The position numbers and the translations under genes are program-made. Positions 1-15,971 of a stretch of 64,000 nt of DNA are shown here, piece by piece. The stretch spans positions 96,001 through 160,000 of the forward strand of contig CAVVUS010000014.1 of NCBI GenBank assembly GCA_963751345.1, given 5' to 3'. The notes under the pieces were generated by a model, which made no database searches, was not told the origin of the DNA, and saw nothing but the letters and a program-made list of their open reading frames with translations. How positions within the stretch are numbered: the first letter of the stretch is position 1; every line of letters begins with the position of its first letter. The stretch comes from an uncultured Chloroflexia bacterium. Its GTDB lineage: Bacteria; Chloroflexota; Anaerolineae; B4-G1; SLSP01.

Positions 1-745
1 AGCATATTCGCCCCCATCAGGATGCGGTTGGGATCGTCGTGCTCCAGCAGGGGGATCATCGACGCGGAGAGCCCCAACGTCGCCTCGGGGCGCTCGTCGA
101 CGATGACCAGCCGCCCATCTCGGACGGTCGCGCCGACGGCGATGGTGAAGACGTGGCCCATGTTCGATCCCTCGGGCACCTCGAAGGGGCAGACGTAGCC
201 GAGCTGTCCGGGGGCGATCACGTCGTGGGCCTCCGGGACCAGGAGTCGACGAAGGTGGGTGTAATATGAAAACCAGTTGGTCTCGTCAACCGGCTGCACG
301 GTGACAAATCGCCCTTCCGTGCCGGCCATGAACTCGGCAACCCACGTGTCGAGGGGAAGCCACGCACGGGCCAACGACGGACATCCCAGGGCAAATCGGC
401 AGGTGCGTGCCCCAGGCGCGCCGCGACGAAATCGTAGAGCTGTTCGCCGACGCAGCGAATCTCGGCCTGATCCAGCTCCGGGCGCGAGGCGGTAGGGATC
501 ACCACCCTGCGCTGCCCACCGATCTCAAAGATACCCCGCTCGTCCGGCTGGGGCAGGTCAAAGGCCACGTCCAGTGCGTCGTCGTGTGCCCCCAAGGTAA
601 CCGCCACCCGGCATTCGTAGACACCGGTCGACTCGACGGCATAGCTGAGCAGCGGCAGCCGCTCGGCAAGCAGCGCCGGCAGCCGCTCATTCAGGAACGT
701 ATCGTATGAAGCTTTGTGCCAGGGTGTCGACACATCAATCGTCAT
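1..745 (-). CDS. Highly reduced RNA polymerase beta-subunit (RpoB) paralogue; 3' end beyond the window; one apparent 1-bp deletion at ~379-380
   Basis: Manual translation across the frameshift gives RpoB motifs in the correct order: DLPQPDERGIFEIGGQRRVVIP (~[22 protein letters not shown]), EIRCVGEQL (~RIRSVGEM), QPVDETNWFSYYTHLRRL (~QFMDQNNPLSEITHKRRI), GYVCPFEVPEGSNMG (~GRVCPIETPEGPNIG), SASMIPLLEHDDPNRILMGANM (~[22 protein letters not shown]). Confidence 0.85.
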
Positions 746-1362
746 CGTATTCCTCCTCCCTTATCCCCATCTTCTTCCCACTCACGTGCCAACTGTGCCC
801 GGGCATAATGCAATCGCGACTTTACCGTCCCCTCGGGAATGTCCAGCGCGTCCGCCGCCTCCCCGAGACTCATCTCCAACTCGTAGACGAGCCGGAAAAC
901 CCGACGCTTCTCCTCCGACAGCTTGTTGACGAGCTGGCGATACCTCGCGCGCTCCTCCGCCTGCTCGACGGCGGCCTCCGGCCCGAGAGAACCGGCATCC
1001 ACCATCCAGGCGGGCACGCGATTGTCGGCGTCGTCATCATCGTCGACGTCCGGGGGGATCTCCAACGGAAGCTCCCGCCGCCGCTGTACCGTGCGGAGAT
1101 GGTTGAGCGCCAGATTGGTCGCGATCCGGTAGAGCCACGCCTTGAACGTGCCCTCCCCCTGCCATTGGTCGGCCCGCATCCACACCCGCAGGAAAGTCTC
1201 CTGCACCACGTCGTATGCTGCAGCTTCATCGTGAACGATGTGGAGAAGGTAAAACCGCAGCGACGTAGCATAGCGATCGACAAGCACCTCGAACGCGTGC
1301 GAGTCGCGATCGAGAATGCTAGTCACCAGGTCACTGTCGGGTACGGGCGACGCGTCTTGCAT
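742..1362 (-). CDS. ECF (sigma-70 group 4) RNA polymerase sigma factor
   Basis: Sigma2 DVVQETFLRVW...FKAWLYRIATNLALNHLR and sigma4 EAADALDIPEGTVKSRLHYAR; start ATG at 1362 after GAGG; stop overlaps the next start (ATGA, 742-745). Confidence 0.95.
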   Translation of the reverse strand: MQDASPVPDSDLVTSILDRDSHAFEVLVDRYATSLRFYLLHIVHDEAAAYDVVQETFLRVWMRADQWQGEGTFKAWLYRIATNLALNHLRTVQRRRELPLEIPPDVDDDDDADNRVPAWMVDAGSLGPEAAVEQAEERARYRQLVNKLSEEKRRVFRLVYELEMSLGEAADALDIPEGTVKSRLHYARAQLAREWEEDGDKGGGIR

Positions 1363-1379
1363 GATGCCTCTACTATACA

Positions 1380-1405
1380 AGACACCGCTGGGCGCAGGAA
1401 AGTTC
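1380..1405 (-). promoter_or_regulatory. Putative ECF-dependent (autoregulatory) promoter GAACTT-N16-GTCT
   Basis: Minus strand reads GAACTT tcctgcgcccagcggt GTCTTG, ending about 15 nt upstream of the sigma start codon. Confidence 0.6.
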
Positions 1406-3040: not shown

Positions 3041-5369
3041 ATGAGATACACTTATGACCGTCTGTCCGTATCCGACAACCGAGAGCCTGTCGACTACGTT
3101 GACACCAATATCGGCACGCTTTCGTACAAGACATGGTCGACCTCACCGGCCGTCCAGCTTCCCCATGGGATGATCGAGATCGACACCTACACGACGCCCG
3201 GCATCGGCGATAAGTATCTGGCAGACAAAATCTACGGTTTCACAACCGGGGCCTTCGCCCTGATGCCCACCGTCGGGAAGCCCGCGCTCTCGCCCGCTGA
3301 GAACGCCTCGGAGTACGATCACGATTTGGAGCTCGCTACGCCTTACCTCTACGCTGTGCTGTTGGAGGATAGTGGGATCGAGGTCGCGTACACCGCGAGC
3401 GAGCGGGCGGCCTACTTCCGCTTCGCCTTCCCGGAGACGGAGACCGGCAATGTCGTGGTCTACCTCGCAGGTGACGCCGAAGCGGCGTTCAACAACGATG
3501 GGAGTCTGACCGGCTCGCAGACCTTCTTCCGGACCAAGACGTACTTCCACATCGAGTTTGGCCAGGCTCCCGGCACGACACAGGTCACCGCGCTTGAGGA
3601 AGAGGCCGGGGCCGGTCGCGGCTGGCGCCGCCTTCGACCGTCGTTGGCCGCCATCGCGAGCTTCGGTGTGGCAGGGGGGAAGGAGGTTGAGGTCCGTGCA
3701 GGCATCTCCTTTATCAGCGCGGATCAGGCCCGCCGGAATCTGCACAGCGAGATCACGGGTTGGGACTTCGAGTTAACCAAGCGCCAGGCCCGCGAGAGCT
3801 GGAACACCGTGCTCCAGCGCATCCGAGTTGAAGGCGGCACGGAGGATCAGAAGACCAGCTTCTATACGGCGATGTATCGCGATCTGCAGCGCATGAAGAA
3901 CATCACCGAGGACGGCAAGTACTACAGTGGGTTCGATGGCGAGGTGCACGACGCCGGCGACCAGGATTTCTACAACGTCGATCAGCCCTGGGATACCTAT
4001 CGCTGTGCCCGCCCTCTGCAGTTCATCCTCGAACCCGAGCGCGTGAACGACATGCTGCAATCCTACACACGGATGGCCGAGCAGTTGGGCTGGATGCCGA
4101 TCACGCCTCACATCAGCGGCGAGCGCGCCACGATGGTCGGCCGGCACATCACGGCGATCATCACCGATGGATACAACAAGGGCTTCCGCGGCTTCGACCT
4201 GGAGACCGCTTACGCCGGCATGCGGGCGAGTGCGCTGGACAGAACCATCCTGCCCTGGGTAAAGGGGCCGGCGACAGAGCTCGATCGCGCTTACGACGAA
4301 CTCGGCTACTATCCCGCACTGCCCACCCGCGAGGATCAGAAGGTGGACGATCCTGACGAATGGCGGGCCAACGTCGAGAGGCATCATCATGTCAGAGATG
4401 CCGTACCAGATCACGTGGCTACCTGAGATCGGCGTAGACGAATGGGTGCCTGAGGTCGACCGCTGGCACCGGCGCCAATCAGTGTCGGTGACGCTGGAGA
4501 ACGGCTATGACGACTGGTGTCTTGCCCAGCTCGCCGAGGCCCTGGGCAAGGACGACGATGCCGAACACTTCATGTGGCGGGCCGCCGGCTACCGCAACCT
4601 CTTCAACCCGGCCATCGGCTTCATGGCGCCCAAGGACGCCGATGGCACCTGGGTCGAGCCGTACCATCCGATCCTGTCAGGCGGCTTCGCCGGTGAGGCT
4701 TTCTTCGCGGAGATGAATGGGTGGACCTACACGTTCCACGTCCAGCACGACGTCCAGGGCTTGATCGATCTGATGGGCTCGCGAGAGGCCTTCGTCGAGA
4801 AGCTGAACGCGCTCTTCACCGAGCAATACATCATGGACAAACCCGCTTTCTGGGGCCAATTCCCTGATGCATCGGGCCTGATCGGGCAGTACAGCCAGGG
4901 CAACGAGCCTAGCTTCCACGTGCCCTATCTCTACAACTACGCCGGCGCCCCGTGGCGGACACAGCGTCGCGTGCGGGATATCATGAAACTTTGGTATAAC
5001 GCGGGGCCGATGGGGCTCTGCGGCGACGATGACATCGGAGCGCTCTCGTCGTGGTACGTCTTCAGCGCGATGGGCTTCTACCCGACCTGCCCGGGACGCC
5101 CCACCTACGACCTCGGTAGCCCGCTCTTCGAGACAACGACCATCAGCATGCCGGAGGGCAAGACCTTCACGATCCACGCCAAGGGCGTGTCGGACCGCAA
5201 CAAGTACATCCAGTCCGCAACGCTCAACGGCGAGCCGTGGGATCGCCCGTGGCTGCGGCACAGCGACCTGGCCAACGGCGGCGTACTGGAACTGGTGATG
5301 GGCCCGCGCCCGAACAAGGAGTGGGGCAGCGATCCCTCCTCGGCGCCCCCGTCGATGTCGACGGACTAG
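3041..5369 (+). CDS. GH92 family glycoside hydrolase (alpha-mannosidase-like), frameshift near 4380-4390
   Basis: WDTYR, SVSVTLE..YDDW, GQYSQGNEPSFHVPYLYNY, GDDDIGALSSWYVFSAMGFYP split over ORFs 3041-4426 and 4389-5369; no signal peptide evident. Confidence 0.9.
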
Positions 5370-5381
5370 GTACGTCATAGA

Positions 5382-13917: not shown

Positions 13918-15971
13918 CTCGAGTGCTGATCGTGGACGACCAGGAACAGAACCTCTATATGCTGCAGGTGCTACTACAAGGGCATAACTACGAGGTAATG
14001 TCAGCGCGGAACGGGATCGAGGCATTGGATCTTGCCCGGGAGCAGGCCCCGGATCTCATCGTCACGGATATCCTGATGCCCGGCATGGATGGTTTTGCCC
14101 TGTGTCGCGAGTGGATGGCAGACGCGAGGTTGCAGCATGTGCCCCTGGTCTTCTACACCGCCACATACACCGATCCCAGGGACGCCTCATTTGCCTTGAG
14201 CCTGGGAGCAGCGCGGTTCATCGTCAAGCCTGCTGAGCCGGATGCCTTTATCGAGATGGTGCAACAGGTGTTGGGCGATCACGCAGCACACCAGCTGACT
14301 CCCACCATCGAGCCGCATGGCCAGCCTACGGAGGTCTACTACCAGCAGTATAACCAAGCCCTGATCCGCAAGCTAGAGGACAAGATGGCGCAGCTCGAAG
14401 AGGCGAATCACTCGCTGGAGCTCGACATTGCTGCACGGGAACGGGTTGAAGAGGAACGTGCGGACCTGACTACCCAGATCCACGAACAGGCGCGTCAGAT
14501 GGAGCAGGTCCTCGCCACTGTGCCGGCAGGCGTGCTCCTACTGAATGCCGAGTGGCGTGTAGTGATGGCCAATCCCGCGGCCGAAGAAGACCTCACCGTC
14601 CTAGCCGATGCCAAGGTAGGAGACGTCCTCACCCGCCTTGGCGACCGTCCGCTGGCCGAGCTGCTCACCTCCCCGGTCACCAAGGGGCTGTGGCATGAGG
14701 TACGGGTGGGAGACAACGTCTTTGAGGTCATCGCCCGGCCTATGGCGGACGGCCCAGATCCGGAGCGCTACGTGCTGGTGGTCAATGACGTCACCCGCGA
14801 GCGCGAGATCCAGACGGAACTGCAGCAACAGGAACGCCTCGCCGCCGTCGGGCAACTGGCCGCCGGCATCGCACATGACTTCAACAACATCCTGGCCATC
14901 ATCGTCCTCTATTCCCAGATGGACCTCCATATCCCCGACCTTCCCGGACAGCTTCGTGCGCATCTACAAACCATCGCACACGAGGCCAAACAGGCCTCCA
15001 ACCTCATTCAGCAGATTCTGGATTTCGGCCGCCGTGCCGTCCTCGAACCTCAACCGCTGAACCTCGTGCCCTTCCTCAAGGAACGCGTCAAGCTGCTCGA
15101 ACGCACCCTTCCAGAGAGCATCAAGGTCGAGCTCAGCCACGCGCCGGATGAGGCTATCATCAGAGCCGATCCAACGCGTATGCAGCAGATGATCACCAAT
15201 CTGGCCGTTAACGCCCGGGACGCTATGCCCCAGGGCGGGACTCTGCAAATCGGACTGGAGAGATTGCGGTTCGGACCCCATGATGCCGTGCCACTCCGCG
15301 GGATGACACCCGGCCCGTGGATCAAGGTTATGGTCGGCGATACCGGCACGGGTATTGCACCCGAGACAGCGCTCCACATTTTTGAGCCCTTCTTCACCAC
15401 CAAGGAACGTGGCAAGGGCACGGGGCTGGGGCTCGCCCAGGTCTACGGCATCGTCAAGCAGCACGACGGCCATATTGACGTGCAAACCCAGATGGGCCTG
15501 GGCACTACTTTCACCATCTATCTACCGGCCCTCGAAGTGGCGACCTTCGAAGATGAACCTATGATTCCAATTAGTCTGCCCTTGGGACACGCCGAGACGA
15601 TTCTGGTCGTGGAAGACAACACGACCTTACGTGAAGCTGTGGTGAGCGCCCTGCACTTGCTCAACTACCAAACGCTGGAAGCTGCTGACGGACACGAGGC
15701 GCTGGCGATACTGGACGAAAAAGCCGCGGGCGTCTCCCTCATCCTGAGCGACCTAGTGATGCCCAAGATGGGGGGCCAGGCGCTATTCAGCGCGCTGCAG
15801 GAGCGCCGGCTAGCTGTGCCGGTAGTCATGATGACCGGCCATCCTATGGAACGTGAACTGCTCGACCTGCAAGCCCACGGCCTGGCCGATTGGGTGCTCA
15901 AGCCTCCCCGCGTTGAGACACTGGCTACGATGCTCGCACGAGTGCTGCATGGGAGAGATGCAGATACGTGA
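13914..15971 (+). CDS. Hybrid histidine kinase (REC-PAS-HisKA-HATPase-REC)
   Basis: N-terminal REC, GIAHDFNNIL, NARDAMP, FEPFFTTK, C-terminal REC SDLVMP. Confidence 0.93.
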   Translation: MTRVLIVDDQEQNLYMLQVLLQGHNYEVMSARNGIEALDLAREQAPDLIVTDILMPGMDGFALCREWMADARLQHVPLVFYTATYTDPRDASFALSLGAARFIVKPAEPDAFIEMVQQVLGDHAAHQLTPTIEPHGQPTEVYYQQYNQALIRKLEDKMAQLEEANHSLELDIAARERVEEERADLTTQIHEQARQMEQVLATVPAGVLLLNAEWRVVMANPAAEEDLTVLADAKVGDVLTRLGDRPLAELLTSPVTKGLWHEVRVGDNVFEVIARPMADGPDPERYVLVVNDVTREREIQTELQQQERLAAVGQLAAGIAHDFNNILAIIVLYSQMDLHIPDLPGQLRAHLQTIAHEAKQASNLIQQILDFGRRAVLEPQPLNLVPFLKERVKLLERTLPESIKVELSHAPDEAIIRADPTRMQQMITNLAVNARDAMPQGGTLQIGLERLRFGPHDAVPLRGMTPGPWIKVMVGDTGTGIAPETALHIFEPFFTTKERGKGTGLGLAQVYGIVKQHDGHIDVQTQMGLGTTFTIYLPALEVATFEDEPMIPISLPLGHAETILVVEDNTTLREAVVSALHLLNYQTLEAADGHEALAILDEKAAGVSLILSDLVMPKMGGQALFSALQERRLAVPVVMMTGHPMERELLDLQAHGLADWVLKPPRVETLATMLARVLHGRDADT

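Follow-up and report, generated by a model that had tools for sequence, protein, structure and literature searches.

To our knowledge, every cellular RNA polymerase described so far is built around a core of five subunits and about 400 kDa, and the few single-chain relatives that we know of (YonO, the killer-plasmid protein Orf6 and the tail-fused phage enzymes) are so divergent that they reveal little about what the bacterial enzyme can dispense with. Here we describe a two-gene locus at the left end of a 64,000-nucleotide stretch of DNA from an uncultured Chloroflexia bacterium (contig CAVVUS010000014.1, abbreviated C14, positions 96001-160000); this whole stretch is referred to as the window, and the genome assembly to which it belongs (49 contigs, 5.4 Mb) as G000. 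In this locus, the gene for an extracytoplasmic function (ECF) sigma factor is directly followed by a gene predicted to encode a single-chain fusion of about 1040 amino acids (aa), in which a trimmed beta subunit is joined end to end with a trimmed beta-prime subunit. This conserved, unnamed, sigma-coupled, single-chain minimal beta::beta-prime protein, called the mini enzyme in the following, occurs in some Chloroflexota.

YonO, encoded by the Bacillus subtilis prophage SP-beta, is a processive and efficient DNA-dependent RNA polymerase without detectable trigger-loop homology (PMC5467207). As set out in the parts of that publication dealing with its architecture, YonO resembles the mini enzyme in being a single polypeptide of about 100 kDa that possesses both barrels and lacks trigger-loop homology, but its sequence shows next to no similarity to beta and beta-prime except at a few catalytic residues, it is encoded by a prophage and it has, in the same parts of the text, no known sigma factor (PMC5467207). 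The mini enzyme, in contrast, reaches 99% hhalign probability to RpoB and RpoC, is chromosomally encoded and is tied to a sigma gene; it is the published description of YonO that sets the two apart. Orf6 of the yeast killer plasmid pGKL2, an Rpb2::Rpb1 fusion of 982 aa, shares with the mini enzyme the order of the second-largest followed by the largest subunit, the deletion of about half of the coding sequence, and a similar size (PMC2919709). It differs by its eukaryotic descent, its location on a cytoplasmic linear plasmid and, in the sections of PMC2919709 devoted to it, by having no sigma factor; the same sections present it as biochemically uncharacterised.

Natural beta::beta-prime fusions (NCBIfam NF007172 and NF011417) likewise join the C-terminus of beta to the N-terminus of beta-prime, but these are complete, essential housekeeping polymerases with a length of about 2850 aa, and the mini protein scores only 161-169 bits against their models, whose cut-offs lie at 4632-5372. 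The non-virion RNA polymerases of jumbo phages (phiKZ and AR9 type) are described, in the pertinent parts of three publications, as reduced relatives of beta and beta-prime that are independent of host subunits (PMC4666361, PMC5449584, PMC7598289). They consist of four or five polypeptides, are phage-encoded and very divergent, whereas the mini enzyme is one chain, accompanied by an ECF sigma factor and chromosomally encoded. The comparison with the canonical core polymerase and its ECF sigma factors reveals RpoB/RpoC homology in the same block order, catalytic motifs, clamp helices and a bridge helix, along with a two-domain ECF sigma and an ECF-looking promoter. The canonical core differs by comprising about 2600 aa in two chains, as against about 1040 aa in one chain, and by possessing a lobe, a flap, a rudder loop and a post-bridge region that are absent from the mini enzyme, which coexists with normal rpoB and rpoC genes.

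The original prediction, which had described the locus as an ECF sigma gene coupled to a miniature beta paralogue, knew of no described system of such a form. Our literature search likewise turned up no account of a fused mini beta::beta-prime protein linked to a sigma factor in the texts covered, which included the main text of the ECF classification study PMC7826278 but not its supplements, in which gene neighbours may be given. That main text mentions no RNA-polymerase-subunit neighbour. The family amounts to a set of natural deletions in the bacterial polymerase; purifying selection acts on it, and it is coupled to a sigma factor of the standard kind and to a defined promoter. An active enzyme would define a minimal sigma-dependent polymerase, provide a tractable model for sigma docking without a flap, and serve synthetic biology as a compact, orthogonal module for transcription.

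A Predicted Single-Chain Fusion of Trimmed Beta and Beta-Prime

The overlap of the sigma gene with its downstream neighbour through the sequence ATGA at 742-745 was borne out, since the upstream gene is recognized by sigma-factor profiles (Pfam regions 2 and 4_2, TIGR02937; see below) and the next open reading frame (ORF) starts at position 745. The RpoB motifs that had been ascribed to the downstream gene are also there: the frame 3-374 on the minus strand carries CPFEVPEG and LEHDDPNRILMGANM and matches Rpb2_3 (Table 1) before it exits the left edge of the window. The gene does not end near this edge but extends a further 2.4 kb, to C14:93596, and contains two more frame breaks there. Positions in this region are given on the segment L001 (C14:80001-98000), whose coordinates equal those of the window plus 16000; the gene ends at L001 13596.

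Leftward extension of the sequence, a check that the original prediction had advised, uncovered an RpoB-like frame of 325 aa with a strong match to Pfam Rpb2_6 (E 5.5e-40) and the barrel motif GDKMSNRHGTKG, a short third frame with the motif GEME, and a frame of 566 aa that carries DADFDGD and matches Pfam Rpb1_2 (E 3.7e-20). Read leftwards, the order in the G000 gene is the beta barrel, GEME, the beta C-terminus, the clamp helices, DADFDGD and the bridge helix. Since its pieces carry both Rpb2_6 and Rpb1_2, the locus holds both catalytic barrels, distributed over four pieces separated by three frame breaks. Because a beta-prime half with DADFDGD is present, the product is predicted to be a fusion rather than a beta paralogue alone. 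Hence, the idea of a miniature beta paralogue has to be given up, while the broader notion of a second, stripped-down polymerase gene with its own sigma factor stands with regard to the conserved linkage and is amended by the fused, DFDGD-bearing beta-prime part.

Among the congeners that carry the gene (G015, G019, G009 and G002; G145, G202 and G555 are further carrier genomes), three possess a single open frame spanning all pieces, with lengths of 1091 aa (G015), 1067 aa (G019) and 1016 aa (G009). The intact 1041-aa protein from G019 (P0001) serves as the reference for residue numbering throughout the family. The LEHDD motif occupies residues 233-237 in the intact homologue, in good agreement with the position of about 236 that had been estimated from the window. 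The estimate of about 430 missing residues was correct in that the protein is reduced and fell short in its extent, since the losses also extend to lobe, flap and rudder loop and to the whole region beyond the bridge helix.

Domain Anatomy of the Fused Protein

We built a family alignment of 44 members and compared it by hhalign with the RpoB and RpoC proteins of G000 itself. Three stretches aligned with high probability (Table 1), and over this aligned core the identity of the family to RpoB and RpoC is 27-41%. A phmmer search of P0001 against the sequences in the PDB gave a matching picture, in which residues 147-210, 211-268, 262-300 and 311-451 correspond to successive beta blocks and residues 640-817 to beta-prime. 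About ten residues (301-310) stand where a clostridial beta subunit has about 138 (795-932), a region that we take, from the standard domain map, to be the flap. In the alignment with RpoC, gaps of 20 residues at the rudder loop and of 50 residues in the dock region were found. The bridge helix is represented by residues 950-990, which align with RpoC and form a helix in the structural model at 960-986; R971 is invariant. The protein continues for about 50 residues after the bridge helix, as compared with about 490 in the RpoC of G000, and no hhalign match extends past residue 990. The trigger loop and the jaw presumably lie in these roughly 490 residues. Judged by eye, the last 50 or so residues of the mini protein seem to resemble the conserved C-terminal motif of beta-prime.

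The junction of the two halves (residues 523-586) has neither a significant match nor conserved cysteines, and the zinc-binding domain of beta-prime therefore appears to be gone. Within this segment, H546, P547 and W548 are invariant; this HPW motif resembles, in our view, the N-terminal HIW motif of beta-prime. The N-terminal 129 residues gave an hhalign probability of only 2.6%, and a profile of this domain found no PDB sequence at E<=10. When modelled alone (predicted local distance difference test, pLDDT, 88.9), this domain has chain 3mlq_C as its best Foldseek match (E 0.019, prob 1.00, TMq 0.60), followed by second-largest-subunit chains from poxviruses and mycobacteria. We take 3mlq_C to be a beta1 domain crystallised with the RNA-polymerase-interacting domain of Mfd. 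On the strength of these structural matches, the N-terminal domain is most likely a beta1 remnant from which the lobe has been excised.

An AlphaFold2 model of the whole protein (pLDDT 89.9, predicted template modelling score 0.87) contains a helical hairpin at 587-632 and the 27-residue helix at 960-986. In Foldseek comparisons it comes closest to beta chains of bacteria and plastids (E 1.6e-23), and viral matches in BFVD are weaker (E 6.8e-16). Judged from these comparisons, the mini enzyme appears to have retained, on the beta side, the beta1 domain and the regions of the fork loop and LEHDD and, on the beta-prime side, the clamp helices, switch 2, a portion of the funnel, the bridge helix and the C-terminal motif, along with both double-psi barrels including the Mg-binding DFDGD, and to have lost the beta lobe, the flap, the N-terminal zinc-binding region of beta-prime, the rudder loop and the approximately 490 residues that follow the bridge helix.

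Conservation of Catalytic Residues

A list of universal catalytic residues of two-barrel polymerases is provided in one part of PMC2919709. The features of the two-barrel core that the family possesses are DxDGD, a barrel of the GDKxxxRHGxKG type, NRAP, the aspartate of FED and the bridge helix; the trigger loop is not among them. D748, D750, G751 and D752 of the DFDGD motif are invariant in all 44 members, as is R971 at the start of the bridge helix. K316 is present in 43 of the 44 proteins, R713 and P715 of the NRAP motif each in 41, and D293 in 40. At position 324, which we equate with K1073 of Escherichia coli beta, the lysine is replaced in the intact G019 and G015 proteins (L016, L015); G000 retains it.

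The ECF Sigma Gene and Its Promoter

The sigma protein matches Pfam Sigma70_r2 (E 2.2e-16) and Sigma70_r4_2 (E 5.3e-13), with no match to region 3 or region 1, and reaches 108.9 bits against NCBIfam TIGR02937, well above the cut-off of 42.9. By these matches it is a predicted ordinary two-domain ECF (group 4) protein of the sigma-70 type, consisting of sigma-2 and sigma-4 only. The ORF listing also offers an upstream GTG at 1413 (ORF 742-1413), which overlaps the promoter motif; the alignment of orthologues favours the ATG at 1362 as the start.

Promoters of ECF sigma factors typically carry AAC in the upstream and GTC in the downstream half. Both are present in the motif TGAAC-N15-GGTGTC, which we found in front of each of the 59 family sigma genes with enough upstream DNA (51 exact copies, eight with one mismatch). 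The spacer measures 15 nt in 58 of these cases and 14 nt in one, and the distance to the start codon is fixed. A Shine-Dalgarno-like stretch, GTAGAGG, is located between the motif and the sigma ATG and is usual in other members of the family. The full motif is unique in G000, and a stricter form of it occurs exactly once in each of five other carrier genomes, in every case at the sigma gene. When a loose pattern was applied to these five genomes, 16 matches were obtained as compared with 11 for a reversed control, and 11 versus 11 remained once the operon promoters were subtracted. Extra copies beyond chance were thus found neither in G000 nor in the five other carrier genomes nor in the 88 loci of our collection, and the promoter of the operon itself is therefore the sole one that can be assigned.

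Linkage of the Two Genes

Conserved adjacency of an ECF sigma gene, for which the original prediction had proposed a survey of homologues, was borne out. In 10 of 10 genome loci, the polymerase gene is immediately preceded by a sigma orthologue (44-84% identity) of the same orientation. Among the metagenome loci with at least 650 bp of upstream DNA, the sigma gene is adjacent in 51 of 62, resides 0.4-1.2 kb upstream behind an inserted ORF in two more, and is lacking in nine. In the genus, a sigma orthologue (E<=1e-30) is present in exactly those five of 22 genomes that possess the polymerase gene. Hence, the sigma gene and the enzyme gene are strictly co-inherited. No third conserved gene emerged, since none of the other neighbour families was encountered in more than seven of the 88 loci, and phage, integrase, defence or mobile genes were not recurrent near the cassette in these loci.

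The nine sigma-less loci comprise a near-identical group (L082, L085, L086, L088, L103 and L124), the pair L097/L098, and L080. The upstream DNA of the six-member group shares a repeated, apparently non-coding sequence, and the protein encoded by L088 is 87% identical to that of the sigma-linked locus L089. In L097 (2761-3318 and 3929-3954), and likewise in L098, an IS200-like transposase ORF is positioned upstream, and TGAAC-N15-GGTGTC stands right before the polymerase gene. G202 encodes a 672-aa protein (L026 12090-14108, plus strand) with an N-terminal ECF-sigma-like region that is 30% identical to the cassette sigma; its gene adjoins the cassette's own sigma gene and is divergently oriented.

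Distribution and Purifying Selection

The best 120 protein clusters listed in our search are all 857-1067 aa long and 48-100% identical, and all carry both Rpb2_6 and Rpb1_2. Their names are either 'hypothetical protein' or simply those of Pfam domains; where organism labels are given, these read Anaerolineae or Chloroflexi/Chloroflexota, with one Hydrogenedentes. Fragments bear the labels Limnocylindrales, Ktedonobacteraceae, Caldilineaceae and, in one case, Armatimonadetes. Pfam, NCBIfam and PHROGs contain no model for the family and yield partial RNA polymerase matches only; the fused protein scores 178.5 bits against the NCBIfam rpoB model TIGR02013 (cut-off 801.15) and 89.3 bits against the rpoC model TIGR02386 (cut-off 963.5). 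We also considered natural split forms, and the search for shorter proteins gave mostly contig-end fragments and hence no evidence for them.

The gene is sparsely distributed. It was detected in four of 21 other congeners, in three of 400 other genomes in a sample of the class and in two of 400 in a sample of the phylum (five of 800 Chloroflexota), and strong matches were found in none of 19 genomes from 13 other genera of the order; all of these counts refer to samples in which many genomes are incomplete. One carrier, G555, is a complete one-contig genome from another class. At the syntenic site of G011, a response-regulator/kinase gene pair is followed after 325 bp by a GH92 gene; G000 and G002 hold the cassette in between. 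Given this presence or absence at one syntenic site, the cassette behaves as a discrete accessory unit. Flanking repeats were found neither at the filled nor at the empty site.

Of 80 metagenome matches, 77 are free of internal stops, and a full-length, stop-free coding sequence is present in 74 of the 88 loci; the match in G145 contains one TAA. We determined the ratio of nonsynonymous to synonymous substitutions (dN/dS; Nei-Gojobori) for six independent, non-overlapping pairs with 82-89% amino acid identity and obtained values of 0.11-0.24, with every segment of the protein below 0.45. Eight closer pairs had accumulated too few changes to be informative. The family is under purifying selection. 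In the comparison of G000 with G002 (L001 11296-17362 versus L018), the synonymous divergence dS amounts to 0.14-0.34 in the cassette and to 0.57-0.75 in the flanking response-regulator and kinase genes; this lower dS of the cassette could reflect either its recent exchange or differing codon constraints.

Possible Modes of Action of the Cassette

Three functional ideas had been put forward for the downstream gene in the original prediction: part of a dedicated polymerase, an RNA polymerase mimic that sequesters the sigma factor, or a decoy. In view of the conserved catalytic residues, the dedicated polymerase is the best fit; the mimic and the decoy are retained as candidates. Accordingly worded, our preferred reading, to which we give somewhat better than an even chance, is that the locus constitutes a conserved two-gene cassette (promoter, ECF sigma gene and the gene for a single-chain minimal polymerase) that acts as a sigma-dependent polymerase. 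The sigma factor would dock on the retained clamp helices of the mini enzyme, and the two proteins would assemble into a small holoenzyme initiating at TGAAC-N15-GGTGTC promoters and transcribing at least its own operon and possibly further targets. Transcription of its own operon would amount to a positive feedback, as we propose. The mini enzyme would act alongside the normal polymerase and would not replace the host enzyme. YonO offers a precedent for efficient RNA synthesis by an enzyme that lacks detectable trigger-loop homology (PMC5467207).

The clamp-helix hairpin (587-632) is retained and partly conserved, with N598 invariant and Y591, R603 and P610 kept in at least 90% of the members. 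We also modelled the complex of the sigma factor with residues 1-790, a step that had been advised for the original prediction. The score was 0.45 (runs 0.46, 0.45 and 0.40), as compared with 0.00 for the best of three controls; the runs agreed in at least 28% of the contacts, and the pLDDT of the partner was at least 61. In the calibration of this procedure the mark was reached by 58 of 80 solved complexes and by two of 110 mismatched pairs, seven of these 80 and both mismatches doing so at a score of at most 0.60; since user-made alignments were supplied, these counts hold only roughly.

Several observations weigh against a sigma-dependent mini polymerase. The predicted complex is a weak pass and lends it weak support, and the score may reflect likeness alone because complexes of sigma factors with core polymerase have already been solved. 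The flap is the usual anchor of sigma-4, and its loss poses the chief mechanistic difficulty, since it is unexplained how the mini enzyme would read a promoter with a strict 15-nt spacer; the host core, equipped with the cassette sigma, could read it instead. No second copy of the promoter above the level of the control was found in G000 and five other carriers. Catalysis could be slow, since the part of RpoC that follows the bridge helix is gone except for the short C-terminal motif. Furthermore, K324 is kept in only 37 of 44 members (M in five, A in one, G in one) and E292 in 24 of 44, and this looser conservation would argue against an active site that is canonical in every respect. The glutamate of FED is also absent from YonO-like enzymes and from RNA-dependent RNA polymerases, as stated in the section of PMC2919709 on these residues. 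Finally, a real and recent decay of the G000 copy is possible, in view of three breaks in 3.1 kb and of the closest relative, G002, being broken as well.

A more far-reaching form of the sigma-dependent reading would see in the cassette an autonomous, self-amplifying, orthogonal unit made up of a 26-bp promoter, a 200-aa ECF sigma factor and a 115-kDa enzyme, which would be the smallest sigma-dependent polymerase of the cellular type. We regard this as conceivable, though as falling a little short of probable, and the same tentative standing applies to its corollary that the enzyme would need neither alpha nor omega and could do without flap, lobe and trigger loop. If true, it would reveal how far a bacterial polymerase can be pruned while still using a sigma factor.

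The alternative that survives best, although we hold it to be unlikely, is an active polymerase that does not employ the sigma factor as a subunit. The sigma factor, together with the host core, would then only switch the operon on, and the product would be a primase-like, RNA-templated or promoter-independent enzyme, perhaps serving in stress or defence. This would suit the conserved catalytic core combined with the loss of elements that hold the DNA or guide the exit of the RNA (lobe, flap, rudder loop and post-bridge region), the failure to find additional operon-type promoters, and the patchy, accessory distribution. Single-chain relatives also work without a known sigma factor, the promoter factor of YonO being unknown in the parts of PMC5467207 that deal with its transcription. 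However, the strict co-inheritance and adjacency of the sigma gene exceed what regulation would need, the clamp helices, which are the standard dock for sigma-2, are retained and conserved, and neither recurrent defence or mobile genes near the cassette nor a member of the family in a scan of viral contigs was found.

More doubtful still is a mimic of the core polymerase that acts on the sigma factor, be it as an anti-sigma or storage protein or as a decoy for polymerase-targeting molecules, with the host core and the sigma factor transcribing the operon. The clamp helices of the product would hold the sigma factor back, as co-transcribed anti-sigma factors do, and the protein would represent a new class of anti-sigma if it controlled its sigma factor in this way. 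The gene occupies, with its ATGA overlap, the slot typical of an anti-sigma gene, and no anti-sigma domain exists nearby, in that Pfam finds only RNA polymerase domains in the pieces and in the intact homologue. The conserved clamp-helix stretch, the loss of the flap and of the post-bridge-helix region with their importance for initiation and catalysis, and a promoter of the ordinary ECF type that the host holoenzyme could read are all compatible with it, and the weak pass of the predicted complex would fit binding of any kind. A pure binder, on the other hand, has no need for an invariant DFDGD, K316, R713/P715, the bridge-helix arginine and switch 2; dN/dS is low in every segment and not just in the clamp helices; and about 1040 aa would be very large for an anti-sigma factor.

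We consider it very unlikely that the gene is cargo of a phage or another mobile element, that is, a YonO-like viral polymerase residing in a chromosome. Its sparse and patchy distribution among congeners, class and phylum, its presence or absence at one syntenic site, and the IS200-like transposase beside the cassette in L097/L098 could be read in this way, and language-model features of the N-terminal domain resemble those of jumbo-phage proteins (score 0.91-0.92), which is a lead only. However, the scan of viral contigs turned up no family member among 20 relatives, the best showing 38% identity over a fragment, and yielded distant giant-virus and phage Rpb2-like genes only; viral fold matches are weaker than those to bacterial RNA polymerase, and neither recurrent phage or integrase genes nor flanking repeats at the empty or filled site were found. 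A decaying, functionless rpoB/rpoC duplicate or an assembly artefact, to which the three frame breaks in G000, the split G002 copy with its TGA, the TAA in G145 and the three of 80 metagenome matches with stops might point, is extremely improbable and is rejected for the family, given the length and identity of the best 120 clusters listed, the 77 of 80 stop-free matches and the dN/dS of 0.11-0.24, while the pieces of the G000 gene itself show a dN/dS of 0.11-0.20 relative to G002, its breaks are bridged in frame in contigs of close relatives, and two further genes of this assembly, the essential rpoB and the GH92 gene, are broken as well.

The Interrupted Gene Copy in G000

The pseudogene explanation, which the original prediction had named among the outcomes that would overturn it, thus fails for the family and stays on the table for the copy in G000, for which we hold it to be rather improbable but worth keeping in view. 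The coordinates of the gene pieces and of the breaks are compiled in Table 1. Piece 1 belongs to an ORF at 218-745 in which the match to homologues is limited to about the first 122 codons and which has no Pfam match.

Table 1. Coordinates of the cassette features in G000 and of the stretches of the mini protein that align with RpoB and RpoC (window positions unless stated otherwise)
Feature	Position	Strand	Remarks
ECF-type promoter-like motif TGAAC-N15-GGTGTC	1381-1406 (C14 97381-97406)	-	About 20 nt upstream of the sigma ATG
ECF sigma gene	742-1362	-	206 aa from the conserved ATG at 1362; stop codon TGA at 742-744
Fused gene, piece 1 (N-terminal domain)	380-745	-	ATG at 745 overlaps the sigma stop codon (ATGA, 742-745)
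Frame break 1	376-382	-	Located by three-frame translation against intact homologues
Fused gene, piece 2 (beta fork-loop region, CPFEVPEG, and LEHDDPNR)	1-374	-	Pfam Rpb2_3, E 1.3e-8
Frame breaks 2 and 3	L001 ~15400-15414 and ~15296	-	Frame shifts between pieces
hhalign stretch in beta	Mini protein 130-270		RpoB 395-661 of the N piece; probability 98.9%
hhalign stretch in beta	Mini protein 311-519		RpoB to its C-terminal tail; probability 99.6%
hhalign stretch in beta-prime	Mini protein 587-990		RpoC 472-984, clamp helices, switch 2, DFDGD barrel and funnel to bridge helix; probability 99.9%

The original prediction had restored the reading frame by assuming one missing base at 379-380, which turned out to be the right place and the right net shift. 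Intact homologues read through frame break 1 without interruption (PWDAALARAWLPLD). Contigs of relatives that are about 94% identical, assembled from two runs, show two 1-base deletions here, at 376/377 and 382 (L001 16376/16377 and 16382), and across all three breaks the indels in such contigs are -2, -2 and +1, so that by frame arithmetic the frame is restored each time. These contigs stem from one soil study at low depth (four DNA runs with small shares, 0.05-0.14) and represent strains other than G000.

The breaks may reflect either an assembly error or a recent decay. The split rpoB, the split GH92 gene, the frame-restoring indels in relatives and the low dN/dS of the G000 pieces are points for an assembly error. 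When about 14 neighbouring and marker genes were compared with their relatives, the GH92 gene and the fused gene were the sole split ones, rpoB being split as well; three breaks in 3.1 kb hence exceed the background. The G002 copy of the fused gene is also split and has one TGA within the match.

Other Genes of G000

A separate, canonical rpoBC, whose existence had been named as a point to confirm, is present elsewhere in G000, with rpoB on contig C10 and rpoC on contig C11 (at about 450849); because they are located on separate contigs, the two genes are non-adjacent in the assembly. The canonical rpoB (C10, about 143861-147768) consists of two frames of 723 and 624 codons that overlap near 145900-146030, and is followed by rpsL, rpsG and fusA-like genes.

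A gene for a GH92-like glycoside hydrolase (window 3041-5369, plus strand) is split into frames of 461 aa and 326 aa that overlap at 4389-4426, either by an assembly indel or by a genuine frameshift; its orthologue is a single ORF of 779 aa in G015 and of 775 aa in G002. The response regulator (240 aa) and the histidine kinase (506 aa) of G000 are encoded separately, and their counterpart in G002 (L018 4826-7030) is one ORF of 734 aa, which may result from another indel in a few-contig assembly.

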